Shown here piece after piece: positions 1-13,641 of a stretch of 64,000 nucleotides of DNA (the first letter of the stretch is position 1; every line of letters begins with the position of its first letter). A program made the translations under genes and the position numbers. The stretch is from a virus. The stretch covers positions 1 through 64,000 of the IMG/VR virus record IMGVR_UViG_3300007623_000006, one strand, 5' to 3'. The notes under the pieces were generated by a model. It had not been told where the DNA came from, searched no databases, and saw only the letters and a program-made list of their open reading frames with translations.

Positions 1-939
1 AAACTAGGTGATGTTGTATCAGTAAAAGATGATGCAAATGACATTACATTCTGGTTATCATTACAAGATAATAACAGAAATGTTACTATACCTAATACAG
101 ATTGGTGGCAAGAAGTAACAGGATATATTGATAGAGGTGATACTTCATTTTATGAAGAATATGTAGATAGAACTAGGTTAGGTGAAGGTCCTACTAATCC
201 TGCTTTAAGTCCTACTCATATAAAAATTGATAATCCTTATGCAAGTGATGGTGTATTTTGGCTTAAACCTAATGGAGTAGCAGAAGCATTCCCTTGTTAT
301 TGTAAGTTTGATAAGTATGGTGCATGGGCATTGGTATGGTCAAACTTAAGAGGATTTAGAAATAGACCTACTACAGGTATAACTTATAATAGTGCTACTA
401 ATGGTACAGCCCCATTATGGAATATACCAAGTGGAATAGGTTTAGTAGATGAAAATGGTAATCCTCTTATCAATGGAAACAAAGAACTTTGGGAAGTATA
501 TACACCTCTAAATCTTTGGAATAAATTAATGGGTGACAAAAAAGGTAAATTGCAATACGAGTGGAGACATAACTATGGGTCTAAAATTGATAAAATGCTT
601 GTATGTGATATTGACCCATTTAATAGTAGTGACTTATACAGATTGAACATATCTAATGCAAAAACAGGTACACAAGCAGGTTTATGGAGTTATCATAGAG
701 GTAGAAGATTTTCTACATATGATAGTGATAATAATGGTGGAGTGCATAATTGTGCATCATACTATTCTAACACACCTTGGTGGTATGGTTACTGTTGGTC
801 AGGGTCTATTAATGGTGGTGGAGAAAATAATGGACACTCATATTATAATGGTGCATATTGGTACTCATCTTGTAGACACTGGGGAGTTTCTTCAGGTCAT
901 GGAGCAGGTAATGGATGGTTGTATATCCAGTTCACATAA
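1..939 (+). CDS. Fibrinogen C-terminal (FReD)-like domain protein, 5'-truncated by window edge; likely virion/adhesin
   Basis: Frame 1 is open from base 1 (KLGDVV...). FReD-like motifs DGVFWLKP..FPCYC..GAWALV and YHRGRRFSTYDSDNN..CA..PWWYGYCWSGSING. Confidence 0.75.
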   Translation, partial: KLGDVVSVKDDANDITFWLSLQDNNRNVTIPNTDWWQEVTGYIDRGDTSFYEEYVDRTRLGEGPTNPALSPTHIKIDNPYASDGVFWLKPNGVAEAFPCYCKFDKYGAWALVWSNLRGFRNRPTTGITYNSATNGTAPLWNIPSGIGLVDENGNPLINGNKELWEVYTPLNLWNKLMGDKKGKLQYEWRHNYGSKIDKMLVCDIDPFNSSDLYRLNISNAKTGTQAGLWSYHRGRRFSTYDSDNNGGVHNCASYYSNTPWWYGYCWSGSINGGGENNGHSYYNGAYWYSSCRHWGVSSGHGAGNGWLYIQFT

Positions 940-972: not shown

Positions 973-1974
973 ATGATTAAATTATCAGTAGCGTACACAA
1001 ATCAACTGTACCCTATTTTAAGAAAATACAAAGAGCATATCAATGATATCTACTTTAGCGATGGTGAGTTTGACTCAGCTAGAGGTAGTACATCATTCGA
1101 TGAAGGTGAACACTTATCTATTGAAGAGTTAAAAGAAATTAAATCGTTAGGTATAAAGCTTAACTATGTTCTTAACTCTCCTTACTTACCAAATAGGTTG
1201 TTAAACAAACACAAAGATATTACAGAACATTTACTTTCTCTTAAAGAAGAAGGATTAGTAGATATTATCACTGTTAATAATCTTATTTTAGCAAATAATA
1301 AGCATTTTATGAAAACTTTAAATGAGAACTTTGAAGTTAAAAATAGTGTTAATAATCATATTAATAGTGCTTTAAAAACTAAAGAAATTTGTGAAAGATT
1401 TCCTACAATTGATAATATTATTGTAGATAGAAGTGTTAACAGAAATCCGGAACTAATCAAAGAAATGGCAGACATTTGTCACTCATACGGCAAAAAAATA
1501 ACTGTTCTTATTAACGAAGGTTGTTTATATAACTGTATTTTTAAAAGAGATTGTGACTTAACATTTAGTAGTCAAGATAGTGTTGGTAGTGAAGATAATG
1601 GTATTTTCAACTGTTATAAAGAAAACTTCAAAAAACATAACGACAGATACCTTAAGTCTCCTTGGATGACTGCTGAGGGTGTTGAAATGTTAGAAGGTGT
1701 CGTTGACATATTTAAGATTAGTGGTAGATATGACCCACCAGATGAAATAGAAAAAAGAATTAGATATTACTTATACAATGACAGAGATGTTATGTTAAGA
1801 CATATACTTGATAAAGTTTTAAATGAAAAATATGATGAAATTTATAACTTAAGTATGATGGAATTATCAGTTTGGGGTATGTCAAGAACATTAACTAATT
1901 GTAAAAATGATTGTATGAATTGTGATAAGTGTGATGTGTTCTTAGAAAAATATAAGGAAGATAAAAATGACTGA
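973..1974 (+). CDS. Peptidase U32-family Fe-S protein (copy 1)
   Basis: LNYVLNS, LINEGCLYNC..C, DIFKISGR, C-terminal CKNDCMNCDKC. Confidence 0.75.
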   Translation: MIKLSVAYTNQLYPILRKYKEHINDIYFSDGEFDSARGSTSFDEGEHLSIEELKEIKSLGIKLNYVLNSPYLPNRLLNKHKDITEHLLSLKEEGLVDIITVNNLILANNKHFMKTLNENFEVKNSVNNHINSALKTKEICERFPTIDNIIVDRSVNRNPELIKEMADICHSYGKKITVLINEGCLYNCIFKRDCDLTFSSQDSVGSEDNGIFNCYKENFKKHNDRYLKSPWMTAEGVEMLEGVVDIFKISGRYDPPDEIEKRIRYYLYNDRDVMLRHILDKVLNEKYDEIYNLSMMELSVWGMSRTLTNCKNDCMNCDKCDVFLEKYKEDKND

Positions 1975-2668
1975 TTTAAACGAAAACCCGTTTTTAACTG
2001 CTATTATTAGACAAAAACAAGAAATCGAATTATTAAGAAATGAGTATGATGTGGCAGAAGATAGATTTGACCACATATTCACTATTAAAAAATTCAAATT
2101 AGATAATCAAATTCTTAGTTATATGGCTATGCCATTTGACTATGAACCTGAACTTGAGAAAAAAGAAATTGAAGCTAATGAATTGGATATTGTTAAACTT
2201 GGATTAATTACTAATGAACAAGTATACATTCTTAATGACTTAGATGTACAAGACCCTGGTCAGACTGTTATGTACGATGAAGAAACAGGTGAAGTATGGG
2301 AAATCAGAATAAAAGTTGAGTGTTTAATAGATGGTTCATATTTTGATGAAAATAAAAAAACTTGGATTTTACCTAAAGGTACTAAAGAAGCTAAGTTTCA
2401 TATTTACCCAATAAAAAACCAAAAAGAGCATTTCGACTTTTCTGAGTTTCACGAGTTTTCAATCAAGTCTATGGAAAAAATGACTAACTACATGATGTTA
2501 AACGACGAAGAAGGTCAAATAAAACTATACTTAGAAAAAGAACCACAAGATATTAAAGCAAACATTATTCAAGATTATTGGGAGCAAGTAATTAGAGTTA
2601 AACTTATCACTAAAGAAGGTGCTAAGAAATGGTTAACTCACTACATTTGTTTTAAAACTAAGGATTGA
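1967..2668 (+). CDS. Hypothetical protein, U32 partner copy 1 (paralog of 3623..4294)
   Basis: Overlaps U32 stop; C-terminal FDFSEFHEFSIKSM..EQVIRVKL..WLTHYI matches the second copy. Confidence 0.7.
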   Translation: MTDLNENPFLTAIIRQKQEIELLRNEYDVAEDRFDHIFTIKKFKLDNQILSYMAMPFDYEPELEKKEIEANELDIVKLGLITNEQVYILNDLDVQDPGQTVMYDEETGEVWEIRIKVECLIDGSYFDENKKTWILPKGTKEAKFHIYPIKNQKEHFDFSEFHEFSIKSMEKMTNYMMLNDEEGQIKLYLEKEPQDIKANIIQDYWEQVIRVKLITKEGAKKWLTHYICFKTKD

Positions 2669-2669
2669 T

Positions 2670-3626
2670 ATGAAATTATCAATTCCTTATGTTAGAGGTA
2701 TATCTAAAATAATTAAAGAATATAAAAATAACATTTATGATGTTTATTTTACAGATGATGTACTTCAATCTGCTAGACCCAGAACTACACATAACACTGA
2801 ATATATGAACTTATATAAAGAAATGGAAGAAATAAGAGTACAAGGTGTTAAAAGAACTTTTCTTCTTAACTCTATAATGATTAATGACCCATCACTAAAA
2901 GATTTAAGAAGTGACCCAGTTAGAAAAACAGTTAATCATTTAGCAAGAATTAAGGATAAATATGATATAATAACTGTAAACAACTTAATGTATCTGTACG
3001 ACCCTGATTTTATAGAAGTTACTCAAGGTAAAAAATTAAAAAATTCAGTTAATAATAAAATTGACAGTTTATATAAACTGGAAGAATGTTTTAAAATTAC
3101 CGATTGGGATGCTATTAATATAGATAGAAGAATCAACAGAAACAATAAACTTATTAATCAAATGTGCAAAGCCGTTAGAGATAAGGGTGCAGTTTCATAT
3201 GTATTAGTAAATGAAGGTTGTCATTGGGACTGTATATTTAAAGAATATTGTGATATTTCTATGACAGACCGTAACCAAATGACATCATTTAGTTGTTTAG
3301 AACACTATAATATAGGTAAACCTGAAAGTTACCTTAAGACTCCATTATTATTTCATGATAATGTTCAACATATAGATGCAGATGTATTTAAAATAAGTGG
3401 TAGATTCAATCCTGTCGATATTATAGAAAAAAGAATAAGACATTACTTGTATGGTGAAAATATTACTTTAGGTGAATTAATTGATAAACCTTTTGAAGAA
3501 GGTGACCCAGTTGAGCATATGGACTATAAAACATTAAATAAATATAGTATGACAGAATACTTATACGATTGTAAAAATAACTGTTTAAATTGTAGTAAGT
3601 GTGACAATATAAGGAATATTTTATGA
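2670..3626 (+). CDS. Peptidase U32-family Fe-S protein (copy 2)
   Basis: Collinear with copy 1: KNSVNN, IDRRINRN, LVNEGCHWDC..C, DVFKISGR, CKNNCLNCSKC. Confidence 0.75.
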   Translation: MKLSIPYVRGISKIIKEYKNNIYDVYFTDDVLQSARPRTTHNTEYMNLYKEMEEIRVQGVKRTFLLNSIMINDPSLKDLRSDPVRKTVNHLARIKDKYDIITVNNLMYLYDPDFIEVTQGKKLKNSVNNKIDSLYKLEECFKITDWDAINIDRRINRNNKLINQMCKAVRDKGAVSYVLVNEGCHWDCIFKEYCDISMTDRNQMTSFSCLEHYNIGKPESYLKTPLLFHDNVQHIDADVFKISGRFNPVDIIEKRIRHYLYGENITLGELIDKPFEEGDPVEHMDYKTLNKYSMTEYLYDCKNNCLNCSKCDNIRNIL

Positions 3627-4294
3627 TACCATTAACTAGAAAATTTTATAACTCTATAGTTTATCACAGGAAAGCAATTAACAGGTCAATGCCTATACTA
3701 ACTAGTGATTTTAATACTATCTCATTTATATACCACAAAGCGTCTGGTGTTGTTGAAAGTTTATCTTCAACACCACTATCACTAAGTGCAGATAATCAAT
3801 TTTTATATGAAGCCGTTAATCTTACAGAATTTACACCAGAAACAAAAGAACTAATAAGAAACTACAAACATACATTTGGTAAGAGTCAACTTATATGGGA
3901 CAGTGAAAAGAAAGAGTTTGATGTGTTAACATTAAACTACAATGTAAGAAAGTATACAAGATTTATAGAAGAAATTAATTTGTATGATGTAGACTATGAT
4001 AATGAATTTATTATAGATTTTAGTGTTACTAATCTTAAAGGAGAGGAAATTGATTTATCAAATTTTAGTGAAGTTTCACTAAAAAATATGGGTGATAAAG
4101 ATAAAAAGAATGATATGTCAATAAATAACATAAGCGGAAAGGAAACAATCCAGCTACCAAAAGAAAATGACCAATGGTTTAGAGTAACTATAAATGACTT
4201 TAACGAGGAAAATGTAGTTAGAGTAAAAATTAAACATATTGAACATCAAACTTTATGGCTTACGGCCTTTATAGCTCTTAGAGCAAACAAATAA
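3623..4294 (+). CDS. Hypothetical protein, U32 partner copy 2
   Basis: ATGA overlap with U32 copy 2; IDLSNFSEVSLKNM..ENVVRVKI..WLTAFI. Confidence 0.7.
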   Translation: MIPLTRKFYNSIVYHRKAINRSMPILTSDFNTISFIYHKASGVVESLSSTPLSLSADNQFLYEAVNLTEFTPETKELIRNYKHTFGKSQLIWDSEKKEFDVLTLNYNVRKYTRFIEEINLYDVDYDNEFIIDFSVTNLKGEEIDLSNFSEVSLKNMGDKDKKNDMSINNISGKETIQLPKENDQWFRVTINDFNEENVVRVKIKHIEHQTLWLTAFIALRANK

Positions 4295-4307
4295 CGAAAG
4301 GAATTAT

Positions 4308-5471
4308 ATGGTTTTTGATATTAATGTTACAAGTAGATGTAATCTTGCTTGTACTTATTGTTCAGAAGGTAATGAGTGTGGGTTGAGTTCAATTCAATCT
4401 GCTAACACGCAAGTCGATGTATTTGACTTATATAAATTTATAGACAAGTTTCCAGAGGAAGAAACATTTGAATTATTCTTCTGGGGTGGTGAACCAATGC
4501 TAAATTGGGCTTACTGTAAAGAGGTAATTGACCATTATATAGATGATAAAAGATTTGGTTTTTATTTTTATACTAACGGTATGTACATAGATAGATACTG
4601 GGATGATATTTTAGAATTACACAAAAAAACAAAATACCAAAATCATGGTGGAAAAGGTAGATTACACTTCCAAATTTCTTACGATGGTGACCCTATTAAT
4701 GAGATTGAAAGAATTGATAAAAAAGGTAAAACTGTTTCTTGGAAAGTTAAAGAAAACTATGAAAAATTAAGACAGGAAGGTATATCAACTTCTCTTAAGT
4801 CTGTTATTGTTGCAAGAAGTTTTAAACACATTTATGAAGCATATTTAGATGTATCTGCTATCAACTTTAACTATTCTCCTACACCAGATTCATTTTCACA
4901 AATGACAGAAGAAGAGTTTCAACCATTCTTAGATGAATTAGGTGAAGGACTAAAAAATATTGCTAAACACATATATGACAATAATTTACCACCTGAAACA
5001 TTTGCTTGGTTCCAAGATAGTAAAAAGTTATGTGGTGCAGGTAAAGGGTACTACTCAATCGACCTTAATGGAGACTTAAGTCCTTGTCATGGTTGTATGT
5101 ATAGAGACACCGATACACATAAAGTTGGTAATGTAAATGAAATCCTTGCAGATGATATTAATATTAAAGACTACTTAGAAACTGTTAGTCAAGCATACAA
5201 AGAAGGACACCATAAAACAAATGAGTGTTTATCGTGTGACGCACTTTATTGTTTAAAATGTCCAGTTGGGTGTTTTGACAAGTCTGACAAAGGACAAAGT
5301 GATAAGGCAAATGACGAATTGAGATTTACTGACCCTGAATATTTTGAAAAATGGTCAGATGCAAATGCAAATTGGCAAATGTGTAAAGTGTTTAAGCTTT
5401 CAGACAAATACCATAAAGCACTTAGATATGCACTTAACTTAAGAGCACAAAAATTACAAAATGTTAAATAA
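4308..5471 (+). CDS. Radical SAM/SPASM-domain maturase 1
   Basis: CNLACTYC, FWGGEP, YTNG, ISYDG; SPASM-like CGAG..SPCHGC..CLSC..C..CPVGC..C. Confidence 0.92.
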   Translation: MVFDINVTSRCNLACTYCSEGNECGLSSIQSANTQVDVFDLYKFIDKFPEEETFELFFWGGEPMLNWAYCKEVIDHYIDDKRFGFYFYTNGMYIDRYWDDILELHKKTKYQNHGGKGRLHFQISYDGDPINEIERIDKKGKTVSWKVKENYEKLRQEGISTSLKSVIVARSFKHIYEAYLDVSAINFNYSPTPDSFSQMTEEEFQPFLDELGEGLKNIAKHIYDNNLPPETFAWFQDSKKLCGAGKGYYSIDLNGDLSPCHGCMYRDTDTHKVGNVNEILADDINIKDYLETVSQAYKEGHHKTNECLSCDALYCLKCPVGCFDKSDKGQSDKANDELRFTDPEYFEKWSDANANWQMCKVFKLSDKYHKALRYALNLRAQKLQNVK

Positions 5472-5491
5472 GACTTTTTTGGTCTTATTTA
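5465..5491 (+). other. Hairpin across the rSAM1 stop codon, followed by AATAAATA late-promoter-like octamer (5492-5499)
   Basis: TAAATAAGAC-N7-GTCTTATTTA perfect 10-bp stem. Confidence 0.5.
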
Positions 5492-5519
5492 AATAAATAA
5501 AAATAAATTATAAAGGATT

Positions 5520-6614
5520 TTGATGTTTACATTAGAATTACTAGTTACAGAAAAGTGTAACTTAGGTTGTCCTTATTGTTATGTTGCTAATAAAAACAAG
5601 TTTATGACAAAAGAGACATTTGACAAAAAGTTTGACCAATTACATGACCTTGTTAGAAGAACAGGTGAGAAAGATTATCATATTTCTTTCTTTGGTGGTG
5701 AACCATTATTAAATTGGGAATTGATAGAGCACGCTGTTCCTAAATTTAAAGCAGACCCTCTTTGTAAAGGTATCGTTATTATTTCTAACTTTACACTAAT
5801 TGACCAAGAGAAATCTGACTTTTTATTAAAGAACGGTGTAGGTGTATCATGGTCATTTGATGGTATTACATCAAACGAAACTAGACCTCTTATTAAAACT
5901 CCCGAAAATGATGGTTACTACGGTACACCTGAAGGTATCCTTAAAATGTACGAAGATAAAAAGGACTTAATCCTACGGCATGTACAAGGTTGTAAATTTA
6001 TGGTATGGCCTGGTAATAGTCAATTAATGACAGAAAACTTAGAATTCTTTGCTGATTGGGGTATACCTTTCCCTGACTATTCACTTGTAAGAGATGATGT
6101 ATGGTCAATTGAGGATATTAAAAACTTTAAAACTGACTTAAGAGCACTAGGTGATAGAACTATTAAGTACCTTATGGAAGAAGAAAAAATGGTTATGCCT
6201 GGTTTCTTTAGTTTATCTATTATGGATTCTATGTTAGGACTATCTAAAGGTAAAAGACCATTTGGATGTTTTGCAGGTTGTAGAGGTGTTGCTATTATGC
6301 CTGATGGTGAGGTATACCCTTGTGCTAGATTTGGGTCTAAAAGAATTATGGAAATTGATGAAAATTATGATTTCTCATATTACCAAAGTAAGTTTAAACC
6401 TGAGAATTATGATAAATGTAAAACTTGTGACATTGAAAAAATATGTAATGCTGGTTGTACATACAGTCAGGTAAGAAACGACAACAAACCGTTAGACAGT
6501 ATTTGTGAATTATTTCACATTATTACAGAAGAAAGTTACAGAGTACTAGACGAGTGTAAAGACAGTCCGTTATTACAACAGTATTTCTTAAACGCATTTA
6601 ACAATATAGGATAA
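5520..6614 (+). CDS. Radical SAM/SPASM-domain maturase 2
   Basis: CNLGCPYC, FFGGEP, WSFDG; SPASM CFAG..YPC..CKTC....CNAGC..C. Confidence 0.93.
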   Translation: MMFTLELLVTEKCNLGCPYCYVANKNKFMTKETFDKKFDQLHDLVRRTGEKDYHISFFGGEPLLNWELIEHAVPKFKADPLCKGIVIISNFTLIDQEKSDFLLKNGVGVSWSFDGITSNETRPLIKTPENDGYYGTPEGILKMYEDKKDLILRHVQGCKFMVWPGNSQLMTENLEFFADWGIPFPDYSLVRDDVWSIEDIKNFKTDLRALGDRTIKYLMEEEKMVMPGFFSLSIMDSMLGLSKGKRPFGCFAGCRGVAIMPDGEVYPCARFGSKRIMEIDENYDFSYYQSKFKPENYDKCKTCDIEKICNAGCTYSQVRNDNKPLDSICELFHIITEESYRVLDECKDSPLLQQYFLNAFNNIG

Positions 6615-6618
6615 TATT

Positions 6619-6828
6619 ATGGCTGGAATGACTATTAAAGAATTAGAAGACGCATTAGAAACTGCTAAAGTACAAATGGCTAAAGTTGACAGTGAATATG
6701 TTAATTATGACCACAGAGGTCACTTGTTTGATTATGATATAGATTATGTTAAATTTATTAATAATATAGCATATGTTATTAAAGAAGGTACTAGAAAAGG
6801 TCTAGACTTTAAAAATCAAGGAAGATAA
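6619..6828 (+). CDS. Small hypothetical protein within the rSAM cluster
   Basis: AGGA SD, tightly packed between two rSAM genes. Confidence 0.6.
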   Translation: MAGMTIKELEDALETAKVQMAKVDSEYVNYDHRGHLFDYDIDYVKFINNIAYVIKEGTRKGLDFKNQGR

Positions 6829-7671
6829 ATGAAACAAGAGGAAAACAACAAACCTACCGAAAATGGTAATGTTAACATTTTGTATTTTACTACAAAATGT
6901 AACCTCGATTGTACATACTGCTATGAAGATTTAGGTAATAAAGAGAAAAAATCTACTTCTTTAGAAGACTTAAAAAAACAAGTCGATGAGATTATAGCAA
7001 CTGAACCAATTGATACTCAGACATTATTTGTATTATTTGGTGGTGAACCTACTTTAGAATGGGATAATGTTAAAGGTGTAGTAGATTATGCTTACAGTAA
7101 AAAACAAAATGTATTCTTTAATTTAGAAACAAATGGAATAAAATTTTTAGACCAAACTTTTCTAGATGATTACTTAGATTTTTTTAAAAATAAACCACAT
7201 TCACTTGATATATCATTTGATGGTATAGGCAATCACTTAAGACAAGACCATAAAGGTAATGATAGCACTCAACAACTATTAGATGTGCTACATATTTTTA
7301 AAGAATTACCTTGGGTTAATTGGAGAATACGATACACTATAACTAAAGCAAACTTTAAAGATTTTGCAAGTGATGTAGTTAAACTAGGTAAATCATTTGG
7401 ACCTAGAAGAATAATTACAAGTGAAGATAGTGACTCATTTACCCAAGCTGATTATTATCATATAAATAAACAAAAGACTGTTTTAAAACATCTTTGGGAT
7501 ACAGATAAGTTAGATATACCAATATGTAATATTTTCTGTGATAACTGTACAGGGTGTGAAAGCTCTAAAGCAAACAAAAGATATTACAAAGATGGTCAAA
7601 TGGTTGACAGTATTGAAGTCAAAGATAATCAAGGTGAGTTCTCACACTTTAAAACAAAAAAAGGCAAATAA
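6829..7671 (+). CDS. Radical SAM protein 3 with a short Cys-rich C-terminus
   Basis: CNLDCTYC, LFGGEP, ETNG, ISFDG; C-terminal CNIFCDNCTGC instead of a full SPASM. Confidence 0.9.
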   Translation: MKQEENNKPTENGNVNILYFTTKCNLDCTYCYEDLGNKEKKSTSLEDLKKQVDEIIATEPIDTQTLFVLFGGEPTLEWDNVKGVVDYAYSKKQNVFFNLETNGIKFLDQTFLDDYLDFFKNKPHSLDISFDGIGNHLRQDHKGNDSTQQLLDVLHIFKELPWVNWRIRYTITKANFKDFASDVVKLGKSFGPRRIITSEDSDSFTQADYYHINKQKTVLKHLWDTDKLDIPICNIFCDNCTGCESSKANKRYYKDGQMVDSIEVKDNQGEFSHFKTKKGK

Positions 7672-8174
7672 TGAAAGAAAGCGAATACAAAGAACTTATA
7701 CAAGAAAAGTTTTATGATGTAATGTCTAAATCTGCAATTGTACAAGAAAAAAATCCTGAAATAGGTGAAGTTTTACAAGATATGACTGAGTTATTAGTGT
7801 TACTTTTTGAAAGACATTCAGAAGCATTTAAACACTTTGACAATAATATTATGGGGTTATCTGGTGATGTAGCACAATTACACCAAGAAGTACAAAATGC
7901 TAGTTCATGCTGTGGTACAGGTACTTGTGGTACAGGTTCAACTCAACCAGCAACACTTCAAGGAATGGAACAAGAAATGTCTGGAGAAATGTTTGACCTT
8001 GCTGCTGACATTATGGGTGGTGATAATGATAATAATGGATATGTTCAATATATAAATAATAAAAGAAAAGAAGTTAAAGAGTATGTTACTAAAGGTGAAG
8101 AAGTTGAGAATGAAACTCAATTAGATGCTGATATAGCAACACTAGGTAACTTTATAGATAAAAAATTGAGGTAG
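7671..8174 (+). CDS. Hypothetical helical protein with central SSCCGTGTCGTGS motif
   Basis: Translationally coupled to rSAM3. Confidence 0.7.
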   Translation: MKESEYKELIQEKFYDVMSKSAIVQEKNPEIGEVLQDMTELLVLLFERHSEAFKHFDNNIMGLSGDVAQLHQEVQNASSCCGTGTCGTGSTQPATLQGMEQEMSGEMFDLAADIMGGDNDNNGYVQYINNKRKEVKEYVTKGEEVENETQLDADIATLGNFIDKKLR

Positions 8175-8177
8175 ACA

Positions 8178-8762
8178 ATGATTTCATTAGACACAATACT
8201 TTACAAAATAAACCTTATGGTTAAAAAAGAAAAATACGATGATGCAATATTAGTATTAGAAAATGCAATTGAAGATGACTTAGTTAATACAGAAGATGAA
8301 AAAACACTTAGTATTAAATATTTACAATTGTTACTTTTAAGAAAAACACCTGAAGATATCCAAAACTTTAGAGAATGGTGTGAAAAGTTAAAAAAAGAAG
8401 AATTTGACCCTAAAATGTCAGAATATGTTTATAACTTTGTTTCTTATTTACTAACTTATGGTGAATTAACTTATACAGACGAAGAATATAAATTGTATAA
8501 GGAAATTATTAGTTGGAACAAAAAACACTTCTTTTATATTACTCTTGTATTAAATGAAATTTCATTTTTACATGAAAATCCAGAAGAAAGATTTGAAGCA
8601 CAGGTAACTGCAATGGAAGAGTTTTTTGAAGGATTAACTGACGAAGAAGAAGAATTAGCAAAAGAGTACTTTGGTGAGATTAAAGCTAAAATTCAATCTA
8701 AACCTGAATTAAATTCAGATGATACAAGAATGTTAGAATTATTTTACATTCTAGATATATAG
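8178..8762 (+). CDS. Hypothetical alpha-helical (TPR-like) protein
   Basis: KYDDAILVLENAI TPR-like helix; GAGG SD. Confidence 0.55.
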   Translation: MISLDTILYKINLMVKKEKYDDAILVLENAIEDDLVNTEDEKTLSIKYLQLLLLRKTPEDIQNFREWCEKLKKEEFDPKMSEYVYNFVSYLLTYGELTYTDEEYKLYKEIISWNKKHFFYITLVLNEISFLHENPEERFEAQVTAMEEFFEGLTDEEEELAKEYFGEIKAKIQSKPELNSDDTRMLELFYILDI

Positions 8763-8771
8763 GAAATTATT

Positions 8772-9917
8772 ATGGCAGTAAGTAAAGCATTATTAGACAA
8801 ATATATTAAATTATTCAAACTGCCTGCTGGGTCTACTTGGGATGATGTTCTAGCTGAAAGACAAAGAAGAAAAGATAATAGTAATCCTTGTTACACAAAT
8901 GCTACAAACTTTGACTACTCTGCTCAATTAACAGATGAACAAATCATTGAAAATATGAGAGATTCAATTGAAAGAGAAAAGAAAAGAAGAGCAGTCCAAT
9001 GGGATTACGAAGCATACTCTAGTTGGGAAGAAATCAAAGAATTAGCATACCCCGATAAACAAGAAACTGATATGACTGAAGTAGACAAAAAATATGTCGT
9101 TAGGTCAGAAGCAATTAGAGAGTTAATATCTAGAATTAATGCACTTGGGTCGTTTTCAGTACCTAATCCTGAGTCATACGAACCAGGACAAGTAATTAGT
9201 AAAGATAAAGTTAAAGTACTTGGTAAGACAATTAATGACAACGAAATAGCATGTCTTTGTGATTGTAACTACTGTACTTGTGATTGTAACTACTGTACTT
9301 GTGATTGTAACTACTGTACTTGTGATTGTAACTACCACGATAATTTAGTTAAGTCTTCATATTTTGGAACTACAACGGATTATGGAGATTCAGGTACTAA
9401 AAATAGAGGTAAAACAAGTGTAGATGATAAAACAGTTTGGGATAAAAGTGTAAACACAACAGATGGCACTATTTGGGCAATTGATTGGTGTAACTGTGAT
9501 TGTAACTACTGTACTTGTAATTGTAACTATTGTACTTGTGATTGTAACTACTGTACTTGTGATTGTAATTATTGTACTTGTGATTGTAACTACTGTACTT
9601 GTGATTGTAACTACTGTACTTGTGATTGTAACTATAAAAACGCTATGTATAGATATTGGTTCAGAGCAAACCCATACGACAGTACAAAATATGATGGTAC
9701 ACAATATGCGTATGGTTCAAGAAGTTCTAGCGGTAGTGTAAGTTCATACTGTACTTGTGATTGTAACTATTGTACTTGTGATTGTAACTATTGTACTTGT
9801 AACTGTAACTATTGTACTTGTAACTGTAACTACTGTACTTGTGACTGTAACTATTGTACTTGTGACTGTAACCAGTGTGTTGTATTCTACTACGGTAGAT
9901 GTAGAGCTTGGGGTTAA
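8772..9917 (+). CDS. Cys-rich repeat protein, putative radical SAM modification target
   Basis: ~160-aa Cys-poor N-terminus, then 17 heptads C-x-C-[DN]-C-N-[YQ] in blocks of 4, 7 and 6; AGGA SD. Confidence 0.85.
   Translation: MAVSKALLDKYIKLFKLPAGSTWDDVLAERQRRKDNSNPCYTNATNFDYSAQLTDEQIIENMRDSIEREKKRRAVQWDYEAYSSWEEIKELAYPDKQETDMTEVDKKYVVRSEAIRELISRINALGSFSVPNPESYEPGQVISKDKVKVLGKTINDNEIACLCDCNYCTCDCNYCTCDCNYCTCDCNYHDNLVKSSYFGTTTDYGDSGTKNRGKTSVDDKTVWDKSVNTTDGTIWAIDWCNCDCNYCTCNCNYCTCDCNYCTCDCNYCTCDCNYCTCDCNYCTCDCNYKNAMYRYWFRANPYDSTKYDGTQYAYGSRSSSGSVSSYCTCDCNYCTCDCNYCTCNCNYCTCNCNYCTCDCNYCTCDCNQCVVFYYGRCRAWG
9252..9335 (+). repeat. 21-nt coding tandem repeat block 1 (4 units)
   Basis: TGTACTTGTGATTGTAACTAC consensus unit. 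Confidence 0.95.
9489..9635 (+). repeat. 21-nt coding tandem repeat block 2 (7 units)
   Basis: Same unit with synonymous and D/N variation. Confidence 0.95.
9750..9875 (+). repeat. 21-nt coding tandem repeat block 3 (6 units)
   Basis: Same unit; last one ends in Gln. Confidence 0.95.
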
Positions 9918-9933
9918 TTTAAAGGAGATTTAA

Positions 9934-10926
9934 GTGAATATAATTTATTATAATTTTGATTATGAATATTTCACAAATATTTTATCGTTAAAAATGGAAG
10001 TGAGAGACGGAGGTCTTTCACTATATGAAAGTTTATTTAGTAGACTTTATGGTATTGGTGCTATAGATAGAACTAAAAAGTTACCTAAGTCTATTAATAC
10101 AGTATCTAAATTCCCTATTCCTAGTGTAATAACAGATTTACCTAGTTATAGTGAAATAGTAGAAGAAAATGCACAGAAAATTAAAAGTTCTTTTGTAGAT
10201 GATTTACCTGCAATAATGTATTACGACGGTTCAATTGATGCAACAGTTGCTTTATTAGCTATGGTTGATGTTGATGTAAAACCTGTTTTAAATGTGTCTG
10301 AGAGCGTCTACAACACACAAAAAGATTTAATTAGTAGTCTGGGTTTAGAAACTGTGATAAACGAAAAGAGAGAGTACGGAGAAGACATTAAACACTATAA
10401 TATTATTAATTATGCTTTAGGTAAAGTTATAAATGATTGTGATTATGCGTATTCTGTATCAAATGAAGATAGTTATTTAAATTTGGGTGTAGATGAATTT
10501 AAAACATACTTAGAGTCTTTATTAGTTAGCGATACATTAATTAATACATTAGATGAGCAATTTAACGCAATTATAAGCATATCACCGGTAGATTTAAATA
10601 CAGTATATAGTGTAATAAAATGGACATCTTTTAATTTTGCGTACCAAGGTCTAACTTTTGATAAATGGTACGACAATAAAACTGTATGGAGAGCAAATCA
10701 AACAGTACATAATTTTTATAATACTGATAAGTTTCAAAGATATAGTTTAAATAATATTAATAAAGAAATTAGCGTAGATAATTTTAAGATTGATGCTCTA
10801 GACTATATAAAATCTAAAACTGATAAGTTTGCAGGAAAAGGATTAGTGTACATAGATGATACTAAAACTGCTTTAAGATTTATTAGTGATGAATATAAAC
10901 CATTTAGAGACATTGGATTTGATTAA
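9934..10926 (+). CDS. Hypothetical protein, possible degenerate adenine-nucleotide alpha-hydrolase (PP-loop) fold
   Basis: GGAG SD with GTG start; IMYYDGSIDATVALL resembles the SGGxDST PP-loop. Confidence 0.4.
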   Translation: MNIIYYNFDYEYFTNILSLKMEVRDGGLSLYESLFSRLYGIGAIDRTKKLPKSINTVSKFPIPSVITDLPSYSEIVEENAQKIKSSFVDDLPAIMYYDGSIDATVALLAMVDVDVKPVLNVSESVYNTQKDLISSLGLETVINEKREYGEDIKHYNIINYALGKVINDCDYAYSVSNEDSYLNLGVDEFKTYLESLLVSDTLINTLDEQFNAIISISPVDLNTVYSVIKWTSFNFAYQGLTFDKWYDNKTVWRANQTVHNFYNTDKFQRYSLNNINKEISVDNFKIDALDYIKSKTDKFAGKGLVYIDDTKTALRFISDEYKPFRDIGFD

Positions 10927-11165
10927 TCCTTTGTCTTTATAATGTGATTATCTTTTATTTTAAATCCTAAATTATTTAAAAATTGTTTTTTTGCTAGCAT
11001 ATCACCAACACTCACAGGTACAAAATAAATATCACCATTATCAATCCCAAAGTCTTTAACTTTAACTACCTTTTCAATTAATAATATATATGTGTCTATT
11101 TTAGATGACGAGTCTATAGAAAACCCATCATCATTTATTTCACTTTTATATGTATCTTTAAGCAT
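10923..11165 (-). CDS. Hypothetical protein
   Basis: Overlaps uvsX stop, same operon. Confidence 0.6.
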   Translation of the reverse strand: MLKDTYKSEINDDGFSIDSSSKIDTYILLIEKVVKVKDFGIDNGDIYFVPVSVGDMLAKKQFLNNLGFKIKDNHIIKTKD

Positions 11166-12198
11166 CAGCTTGTTCTATATCATCCCATGAAAAATCTTCA
11201 TCGGCAATTTCTGAATGTTCAAATGTGTACTTTTTCTCAACATACCATTTAAAATCTGTATTAGAAATAATAGGACCCCAAAATTCTTTAGTGTAAATAT
11301 CCTTTTCTCTCCACTTTTTATCGTTTTCAACTGATGGTCTACTATACCAACCCATAGATGGCTTTTCTACATATCCACCTTCTAAAGCATCTTCTAACAT
11401 ACCATAGAATGGAGAGATACCACCATCATAATTAATTAAATACTTAAGTTTAGAGTTTTCTTTAGCAAATCTACTCTTTTTAGTACTAGCAGTTACAATT
11501 GCTCCAGTAATATCACCTGAACTTTCTTTATTTTTTGCTTTACTTGAACCTAATACAATACTAGATGAAGCAAAATATATACCTCTACCACCACCGATAG
11601 CAAGTGGGTCATATTGATTCATTGAATCATAAACTTGATTAATTACAAATACTGTGAAACCTAAACCTGTTAATAATCTAGCAAACGAATTCTTTTTCTT
11701 TGAAATTGTCATATCTGATACATCTTTACCAGATGTAGCATCGTCTACTGTTTTACTAGTAACTAAACCACCCCAAGAGTCAATAACAAGTAATATTTTA
11801 CTTCTTTCTTCTTTTTCAACTTCACTTGCAATTTGCATAACTGTTTGTTGTAATGACTCAATTTGATTGTCTTGTATAACTAACATATTTTTTTCATCAA
11901 TACCAACATTTTCAGCAAATGCAGGGTCGTATGCAAACTCACTATCTAAATAGATAACTTCTAAACCTTTCTTTTGTGCGTTTTTAGCAACTTTCATACC
12001 AATAAACGACTTACCTAATGATGATGGTGCAGCTATTTGATTTACTTTTCCAATTGGAATACCACCATCTAATTTTCCACTGAATAATACATTAAGTGTT
12101 AAACAACCAGTGTTAATAAAATCTTTTGGTGTCGCTTCTTCTTTAAATATATACTCTGCTATTTTTTTATTTTTAGAGATTTTGTCTAAAATACCCAT
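11158..12198 (-). CDS. uvsX: RecA-like recombinase UvsX
   Basis: TGCLTLNVLFSGKLDGG, APSSLGKS Walker A, YLDSE, VIDSWG, FVINQ, GGGRG. Confidence 0.92.
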   Translation of the reverse strand: MGILDKISKNKKIAEYIFKEEATPKDFINTGCLTLNVLFSGKLDGGIPIGKVNQIAAPSSLGKSFIGMKVAKNAQKKGLEVIYLDSEFAYDPAFAENVGIDEKNMLVIQDNQIESLQQTVMQIASEVEKEERSKILLVIDSWGGLVTSKTVDDATSGKDVSDMTISKKKNSFARLLTGLGFTVFVINQVYDSMNQYDPLAIGGGRGIYFASSSIVLGSSKAKNKESSGDITGAIVTASTKKSRFAKENSKLKYLINYDGGISPFYGMLEDALEGGYVEKPSMGWYSRPSVENDKKWREKDIYTKEFWGPIISNTDFKWYVEKKYTFEHSEIADEDFSWDDIEQADA

Positions 12199-12849: not shown

Positions 12850-13641
12850 TTATTGACATTTTTCAATATACCATCCAATATATTTTATATTACCGCTTTT
12901 TTGATGTTTTATAATATCGTTTGGTCTACATTTGCTATACAATCTTTTATCTTTTCTTGCTTTTAATAATCCATTAGGTAAATTATTATCTTTTATAAAA
13001 TCACTTAACTTATAACCATTAATAATATTATATATTATATTATCATCTTTGTTTTTTATACAGTATGAATATAACCATTTAGTGGAATCAATACCAATTT
13101 TAGAATCTACACAGTAATAACCATTTGTTTTTTTATCTCTTTTATTATATATAGGCATACCATAATTATCAGCAGATTTTTTAATATTAGTGTAACATAT
13201 ACCAATATCTTTTGATTTCTTTACATAATCACCATTACATTCAGCAATAATATTATGATTATTGTCATATATTGTTATTGTCCTTGCTCTACCATTATCA
13301 GAACCGAAATTTTTTGTAGGTGTAAAATCGTGTATCTTAGATATAGTATCACCTCCATCACCACCAATAGTCATATTATACCCATTATTAAATGTATTAT
13401 AATATTTTATCCAATACTCTTCCCTAATATCAATATTTTCATCACTTATATTGTCTTCTAATATACTAGTTTCAAAATTATCAATTCCATATTTTCTTAA
13501 TGCTCGGTGAAATACATTATTAGACCCATTATTACTACTTCTTATGTGTTGATTTAATCTATAATCTACTTTATTTTTTGTTTTTCCTATATAAGATTTT
13601 CCATTTATTTTATTAGTATGTTTATATATTTTATTTCTCAT
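12850..13641 (-). mobile_element. Free-standing GIY-YIG (Seg-like) homing endonuclease
   Basis: IYKHTNKINGKSYIGKT..RLNQH..KYGIDNF..E..I..YNTFNNGYN. Confidence 0.88.

Follow-up and report, generated by a model that had tools for sequence, protein, structure and literature searches.

A phage gene block probably comprising a radical SAM cassette for a cysteine-heptad, fibre-type protein and a separable U32-like module linked to tail fibres

The window analysed here, from an uncultured T4-like phage of fresh water, is a 64-kb stretch of DNA (64,000 nucleotides, G+C about 29%) that forms the start of a 111-kb virus contig (IMG/VR record IMGVR_UViG_3300007623_000006). Its positions 973-10926 are occupied by twelve open reading frames on the + strand that overlap slightly or lie no more than 48 nt apart, which confirms the tightly packed, co-oriented block described in an original prediction that was made from the DNA letters alone. 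That prediction took the twelve genes, here numbered o1 to o12 in their order, for one complete pathway of post-translational modification, a view that was not upheld by comparison with other phages. We consider it more probable, at roughly 60%, that the block represents two separable phage appendage-tailoring modules, A and B, together with an orphan gene, o12. Module B (4308-9917) is, with similar confidence, a phage-specific cassette of radical S-adenosylmethionine (rSAM) enzymes that serves the cysteine-heptad, fibre-type protein o11, while Module A (973-4294) consists of two copies of a U32-like gene, each with a partner gene.

The presumed target of Module B, o11 (8772..9917, + strand), is a protein of 381 amino acids that matches phrog_26958 (3e-44). 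The predicted (CxC[DN]CNY)17 repeat was recovered on counting, since o11 contains exactly 17 in-register heptads, arranged in blocks of four, seven and six at residues 161-188 (nt 9252-9335), 240-288 (nt 9489-9635) and 327-368 (nt 9750-9875), respectively, all on the + strand. Eleven of the heptads read CTCDCNY, three read CTCNCNY and three are single variants; together they hold 51 of the 54 cysteines of the protein, and their DNA exists in ten distinct versions that differ mainly synonymously. A helical N-terminal part (residues 1-160) lies ahead of the heptads, and this pre-repeat region is shared with heptad proteins of the Peptidase_S74 type described below. The exact 381-residue protein is on record from four contigs, and DNA near-identical to the window was found in three freshwater metagenome runs, one of which may be the source; no RNA run was listed for it. 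The contigs of these runs gave no informative variants. In all three runs the short-read contigs stop at 9286 and restart at 9761, i.e., inside the heptad array, and the repeat number of o11 is therefore sensitive to assembly.

The association of such heptads with rSAM genes was examined in heptad-bearing viral contigs sampled by DNA pattern alone, which yielded 59 stretches. Genes of the rSAM family PF04055 scored over the cut-off in all 44 new heptad records, with 2-18 per record and listed positions that adjoin the heptads, and rSAM genes were also present in 11 further records reached through relatives of o11. In combination, rSAM genes occurred in 55 of the 60 heptad-bearing viral records, mostly in adjacent positions. 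As a control, 47 phage records were picked for possession of a U32-like gene, and merely three of these had an rSAM gene over the Pfam cut-off; the reversed heptad pattern, used as a second control, gave no match in 44 phage records. The expected co-occurrence of the enzymes with the Cys-repeat gene in other genomes was thus clearly observed. Within 6 kb of the heptad gene (58 chunks), genes of the o8 type were counted in 36, of the o5 type in 33 and of the o6 type in 31, with all three types in 22, and the viral-contig relatives of o11 come directly after orthologues of o6, o8 and o5. The orthologues that adjoin heptad genes are 29-48% (o5 type), 36-58% (o6 type) and 25-44% (o8 type) identical to those of the window; the closest loci, L137-L142, keep the window order of o5, o6, a small gene, o8, a small gene and the target, at identities of 46-48%, 56-58% and 42-44% for o5, o6 and o8, respectively. 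We found no paper connecting phage rSAM genes with Cys-heptad proteins. A phage collection yielded no match, either to the region by megablast or to o11 by tblastn, a blank that is accounted for by the low-complexity filter and by distance.

Some heptad loci have a composition of their own. In L092 and L102, a single o5-o6-o8 set is followed by a protein with four heptads that is present as three or four paralogues in tandem. In two heptad-bearing records, G090 (behind L113) and G084 (behind L106), the number of radical SAM genes rises to 18 and 16, respectively, which is far above the three that adjoin the heptad gene and leaves most of them without explanation. In one phage type (L004-L007) the heptad protein follows a collagen-repeat protein of 1535-2007 amino acids (PF01391, 2e-105) and a 106-residue gene product; these fragments are without an rSAM gene and may represent an rSAM-independent use of the heptad array.

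The three enzymes of Module B are o5 (4308..5471, 387 amino acids), o6 (5520..6614, 364 amino acids) and o8 (6829..7671, 280 amino acids), all on the + strand. The first two matched both PF04055 and the SPASM family PF13186 (TIGR04085), a Cys-rich C-terminal domain for two auxiliary 4Fe-4S clusters, and o8 matched PF04055 (4e-17), in agreement with the forecast of two rSAM/SPASM enzymes and a third, short rSAM. The PF04055 scores were 41.1, 42.0 and 63.3 bits for o5, o6 and o8 (cut-off 29.5), and the SPASM scores were 24.3 bits for o5 and 21.6 bits for o6 (cut-off 21.5). The CX3CX2C motif is located near the N-terminus of each, at Cys 11/15/18 in o5, 13/17/20 in o6 and 24/28/31 in o8. In o6 there is a canonical SPASM motif, CX2CX5CX3C (Cys 300/303/309/313), plus Cys 250, 268 and 329; o8 had no match to Pfam SPASM, and its C-terminal CX3CX2CX2C at residues 233-243 is one possible auxiliary cluster motif.

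Among the NCBIfam profiles, the ranthipeptide maturase PapB (NF047865) ranked top for all three enzymes, at 81.4 (o5), 130.4 (o6) and 83.1 bits (o8), none of which reached the 340-bit cut-off for membership of that family. The profiles that followed were the SCIFF, nif11, QhpD and anSME maturases, all well under their cut-offs; the scores for the SCIFF maturase TIGR03974, for example, were just 55-73 bits against a cut-off of 425. Nucleotide- and cofactor-type rSAM families scored lower than these peptide maturases, so the enzymes do not group with cofactor- or nucleotide-modifying families, and PADLOC reported a generic, viperin-level rSAM similarity in the block and nothing more. The CrpC family TIGR04463 was not among the best 25 of 57-74 NCBIfam families for o5, o6 or o8. 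The closest solved structure for each of the three was CteB (PDB 5WGG; 1.4e-12 for o6 and 6.5e-14 for o8), with alignments that start at CteB residue 100-101, after its RiPP recognition element (RRE; RiPP, a peptide made on ribosomes and modified after translation). No N-terminal RRE was found in o5, o6 or o8, in which the rSAM motif begins inside the first 31 residues. Taken together, the profile scores support the placement of o5, o6 and o8 in the peptide- or protein-maturase kind of rSAM. Between o6 and o8 lies o7 (6619..6828, + strand), a small conserved helper of 69 amino acids, which belongs to a family of about 100 amino acids (family hidden Markov model, HMM, 49.2 bits, E 4.6e-16) that is sited between o6-type and o8-type genes in other phages.

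The fibre-type nature of the target was suggested by its relatives. The S74 domain is an intramolecular chaperone that folds trimeric fibres or spikes and is then cleaved off. Many heptad proteins carry this domain (PF13884) right behind the heptads: it was present on 29 of the 120 listed among the 354 homologues of o11, and the targets of L137-L142 have about four heptads with Peptidase_S74 immediately after them, S74 being found in the targets of L137-L143. Across phages, the heptad targets range from 170 to 534 amino acids and have up to 28 heptads. Unlike these S74 fibre proteins, o11 has three heptad blocks rather than one; it gave no Pfam match and is thus without a C-terminal Peptidase_S74, its C-terminal end being CVVFYYGRCRAWG. 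The spacer behind its first heptad block (residues 189-239, window 9336-9488) starts HDNLVKSSYFGT, which BLASTP paired with the beginning, SDSRLKENITFIGT, of the S74 chaperone domain in a protein that combines heptads and S74; close relatives read SDSVIKSTYFGL. Judged by this alignment, the spacer may be what is left of a chaperone after decay, in which case o11 would seem to have originated by the joining of heptad-S74 units.

The nearest named relatives are the Campylobacter phages of the genus Firehammervirus, albeit at merely 37% protein identity, for one enzyme (CP220 gp023 versus o6). In phage CP220 the heptads are borne by gp140 (534 amino acids), for which 21-bp repeats have been noted (PMC2853527); an o5-type rSAM gene is located 2 kb from gp140, and the o6-type gene is elsewhere in the genome. 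In phage IBB_35 the heptad protein, 94% identical to CP220 gp140, is the product of gene 3-9 (1605 bp, 60,318 Da), sited between Cpn10-like and RnlA genes, and it is among the virion proteins identified by tandem mass spectrometry (MS/MS), with a coverage of 2.6% (Table S2, PMC3322345). The authors of both papers took the rSAM genes for metabolic ones and drew no connection to the heptad protein (PMC2853527, PMC3322345). Given the fusion of heptad arrays to S74 in relatives and the presence of the Campylobacter homologue in virions, the heptad protein more likely belongs to the virion than is secreted as a peptide, as had been proposed; a phage rSAM cassette for a Cys-heptad protein of fibre type, probably a virion protein, is well supported by comparative genomics and one published proteome. 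Since cultured Campylobacter phages carry the heptad and rSAM genes, the system is directly testable. In phages CP21 (HE815464.1 / NC_019507.1, CP21_105) and vB_CjeM_WX1 (OP654737.1), the heptad protein is annotated as ‘putative N-acetylneuraminate pyruvate lyase’, a name that found no support in the present analysis.

With regard to chemistry, stapling of the heptads by thioether bonds is proposed by analogy with known maturases, and we give it an even chance. Since the enzymes have no RRE domain, o5, o6 and o8 would make direct contact with the conserved pre-repeat region of o11, once it is translated and prior to assembly. Their 5'-deoxyadenosyl radicals would then link Cys sulfur to carbon atoms in nearby Thr, Asp/Asn or Tyr residues. 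Each Cys position of the heptad may have its own enzyme, in which case up to 51 thioether links would generate a rigid, reduction-resistant rod. The linked rod would finally join the virion, probably as a trimeric fibre. The genomic association, the class of the enzymes, the kinship with fibres and the occurrence of a homologue in virions are observations, whereas the role of o11 as substrate and the thioether bonds are inferences.

To our knowledge, rSAM thioether chemistry was known from small antibiotic-like peptides, and not from a whole protein (CrpA) before 2026. The closest characterised analogue, in logic, is the CrpC/CrpA system of Methanococcus voltae, in which CrpC puts ranthionine links on the 28.8-kDa Cys-repeat protein CrpA (Dieter et al. 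2026, PMC13692751). It resembles Module B in that an rSAM/SPASM gene stands beside a gene for a large tandem-Cys-motif protein with a leader-like N-terminus, and in that the product is a protein. It belongs, however, to an archaeal cell and relies on a single, RRE-bearing enzyme and a 17-residue repeat with a C-x-x-Q/D motif, whereas in the phage three enzymes lacking RRE accompany a repeat of seven residues, three of them Cys, in the setting of a virion fibre. The ranthipeptide/SCIFF systems PapB/PapA (freyrasin) and CteB/CteA likewise have the SPASM architecture, and their targets, too, are rich in Cys and offer Asp/Asn/Thr as acceptors, but these are peptides of about 50 amino acids; the phage targets are fibre-type proteins of 170-534 residues, and the export and cleavage machinery is absent. 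Lastly, QhpD (TIGR03906) is an rSAM/SPASM enzyme that makes Cys-to-Asp/Glu thioethers within a structural protein subunit, QhpC, of quinohemoprotein amine dehydrogenase; it differs in making three links in a small enzyme subunit, with no repeat array and no phage context.

Module A precedes these genes and comprises o1 (973..1974, 333 amino acids), the first copy of a divergent U32-superfamily Fe-S protein; its partner o2 (1967..2668, 233 amino acids); the second U32-like copy, o3 (2670..3626, 318 amino acids); and the partner of the latter, o4 (3623..4294, 223 amino acids), all on the + strand. The paralogues o1 and o3 are 35% identical over their full length, and o2 and o4 are weaker paralogues (jackhmmer 1.7e-37). 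The U32 identity originally predicted for o1 and o3 held at the superfamily level, though not as a direct family match: neither protein matched PF01136, NCBIfam or PHROGs (in Pfam, even at E<=10). The relatives of o1 amounted to 380 homologous clusters in an exhaustive HMMER search, PF01136 was matched by 25 of 57 aligned o1 homologues (best 3.3e-12), the o1 family profile matched the U32 structure 5d88 at 2e-8, and the Atlas neighbours of o3 include a PF01136 cluster. By these profile matches, o1 and o3 appear to be distant members of the superfamily. In o1, Cys 184, 188 and 214 are invariant and Cys 194 is nearly so, and there is a C-terminal CX3CX2CX2C motif (C310/314/317/320); these features point to one Fe-S cluster or two. 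From among the window's proteins, an HMM built on 33 viral partners picked out o2 at 19.9 bits and o4 at 15.6 bits, with noise below 3, and a C-terminal motif, R.K...WL..Y, is common to o2, o4 and the viral partners. The AF2 model of o2 (the predicted value for the local distance difference test, pLDDT, being 76) portrays two tandem beta-sandwich domains, and its fold matches were generic Ig/PapD-like ones at Z<=8.1. At window position 2460, within o2, one metagenome contig, possibly from the source sample, is without one base; this would shift the frame and could be an assembly error or a variant.

The distribution of the pair indicates that it is a module in its own right. A search for related loci from o1 alone found none, and an alignment of close o1 relatives found 58 viral loci, where a gene for 198-241 amino acids comes after the U32-like gene in nearly every case. 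Tail-fibre PHROGs directly adjoin the pair in seven synteny classes (L053, L041, L038, L032, L029, L059 and L068). The heptad pattern was absent from all 47 phage records with the U32-like gene, and, conversely, the U32-like gene was present in just two of 16 heptad records and in none of three complete Campylobacter phages. The U32-like gene and its partner, which come behind tail-fibre genes in about 50 other phage contigs without heptads, are best read as an independent, two-gene, tail-fibre-linked module. No paper linking U32 genes with tail fibres was found.

In the window, Module A directly follows o0 (1..939, + strand), a 3' part of 312 amino acids that is open at the contig start and ends in a fibrinogen C-terminal globular domain (PF00147 Fibrinogen_C, 3.9e-8), as had been noted. 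It had no PHROG match, and the other contig end, when compared, showed no continuation into o0; the contig begins within this gene. We presume o0 to be a fibre or receptor-binding protein. Module A most likely modifies this adjoining fibrinogen-domain fibre or aids its assembly, possibly as an oxygen-independent hydroxylase by analogy with U32 enzymes; the heptad protein is probably not what it acts on. The likeness to the U32 family (UbiU/UbiV, TrhP, RlhA; Mk0906, 5d88) lies in the N-terminal barrel region and conserved Cys cluster of o1 and o3, and, for UbiU/UbiV, in the fixed partner gene. On the other hand, o1 and o3 have the extra C-terminal CX3CX2CX2C, their partner is a double beta-sandwich and not a second U32 protein, and their context is that of phage tail fibres rather than quinone or RNA modification.

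A distant second class of U32-like proteins (408-441 amino acids; L062, L063, L067 and L069-L076) is followed by a protein of about 200 amino acids with an HxD...H motif of the 2-oxoglutarate-oxygenase type, and in the vicinity, at most of these loci, is a gene resembling tryptophan halogenase (phrog_2928, E 1e-150). The set has the look of another kind of tailoring cassette.

Several observations weigh against the two-module reading and its heptad chemistry. Five heptad-bearing records, all of them fragments that are 7-33% complete, have no rSAM gene, and the CP220 enzymes are dispersed in the genome; the link between heptads and rSAM genes is therefore not obligatory in cis. All three rSAMs scored far under every curated family cut-off, and their reaction may not be thioether formation. 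As o11 itself lacks the S74 domain, its status as a trimeric fibre derives from relatives; its AF2 model, at pLDDT 41, was unusable, and the mass spectrometric coverage of the IBB_35 heptad protein was merely 2.6%. With respect to the separation of the modules, A adjoins B in the window in the same orientation, an rSAM gene comes directly after the U32-like gene in L019, and two other contigs (L002/L059 and L014) carry both modules. Occasional coupling of Module A with rSAM genes does exist, as L019 places the two genes side by side, and a functional link between the modules in this lineage is conceivable.

This last group of observations, along with the tight packing of the genes, is what can be said for a single twelve-gene pathway, in which the U32-like enzymes (e.g., as hydroxylases) and the PP-loop-like protein o12 would also tailor the heptad protein. 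We regard such a pathway as unlikely, since U32-like genes are missing from 14 of the 16 heptad records, including the three complete genomes, while U32-bearing records contained heptads in 0 of 47 cases and rSAM genes in 3 of 47. Moreover, the U32-like pair elsewhere adjoins ordinary tail-fibre genes, and nothing that corresponds to o12 is present at other heptad loci.

A second alternative retains the cassette genes and changes their relation: the heptad array could be a metal- or Fe-S-binding rod with its Cys free along the trimer axis, and the rSAMs could serve another substrate. The three Cys of each heptad alternate and would share one face of a beta-strand, and the five heptad records without an rSAM gene would be explained. 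The His-x-His motifs at the tip of the T4 long fibre bind iron. CrpA, too, is suspected of metal binding by its authors (PMC13692751). Nevertheless, the heptad and rSAM genes are adjacent across very diverse phages in conserved order (55 of 60 records), the enzymes resemble peptide maturases and not nucleotide or cofactor enzymes, and partial cross-linking would be compatible with metal binding; we thus hold a purely metal-binding rod to be quite improbable. Finally, the three spaced blocks, the leader-like N-terminus and the RiPP-maturase type of the enzymes could evoke a classical RiPP, with the o11 blocks excised as small cross-linked peptides that act as toxin or signal towards competitors or host, but this is very improbable, as Pfam, NCBIfam and other family searches of the block turned up neither a protease nor a transporter nor an immunity gene among the twelve products (the predicted absence of a transporter and leader peptidase thus being borne out), the same repeat ends S74-chaperone fibre proteins, the homologue is found in virions at its full predicted size class, and the targets are 170-534 amino acids long (381 for o11).

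If the two-module reading is carried to its most specific form, three position-specific rSAMs would weld a fibre into a thioether ladder, at up to three links per heptad, while the U32 pair tailors the neighbouring receptor-binding fibre; the whole would be an anaerobic toolkit for phage-appendage chemistry, described in no paper found. This joint form is tentative, and we would not bet on it in all its parts. Should phages indeed modify their own particle proteins in this manner, it would be a new viral route to harden or shape the structures that contact the host, and its product would be a new class of virus-particle protein cross-linked by enzymes. It would also account for the radical SAM genes, as many as 18, of some phages, which have been called ‘metabolic’ or ‘antibiotic’ until now, and it would provide a scaffold, natural and encoded by repeats, from which very stable rods of cross-linked protein could be made. 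A second unstudied enzyme family would be that of the U32-like pair located behind tail fibres, a candidate for oxygen-independent modification of fibres.

The remaining genes of the block, o9, o10 and o12, had been counted as parts of the pathway, a role that lost ground since they have no convincing counterparts in other heptad loci. The protein encoded by o9 (7671..8174, + strand) has 167 amino acids, a CCGTGTC motif and no assigned function; its gene occupies the position of a gene for about 130 amino acids that precedes the heptad gene elsewhere, and comparison with that family gave 10.6 bits and an hhalign probability of 2%. A lineage-specific protein of 194 amino acids is encoded by o10 (8178..8762, + strand); it had no family matches, and no significant match to the families of pre- and post-heptad genes of other loci. 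The last gene, o12 (9934..10926, + strand), encodes 330 amino acids. Its PP-loop likeness, part of the original prediction, is a fold-level lead: its Atlas fold neighbours are of the Asn-synthetase/QueC type, with template modelling (TM) scores of 0.63-0.73 (0.63-0.67 for the Asn_synthase proteins), while its motif, DGSIDA, is degenerate relative to the PP-loop SGGxDS, and there was no Pfam, NCBIfam or PDB sequence match to a PP-loop protein. Just seven close homologues of o12 were found, and none of its counterparts at other heptad loci; it is probably an unrelated or lineage-specific addition to the cassette.

The case for late-promoter octamers, which had been placed at 935 and 5492, proved weak. 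The actual letters are CATAAATA at 935 and AAATAAATA near 5492, and not TATAAATA, and the latter occurs 22 times in the window against 20.2 expected, i.e., with no enrichment. The 48-nt gap between o5 and o6, the sole sizeable one in the block, contains a hairpin at 5470-5492, AAGAC-TTTTTTG-GTCTT, followed by a T-rich run; the A+T richness here is too high for a terminator scan to call it. Beyond the block, T4-type genes are found in the window, e.g., UvsX at 11158-12198, and shortly past UvsX the - strand carries, at 12850-13641, the gene of a free-standing GIY-YIG endonuclease (PF01541, 2.1e-8).

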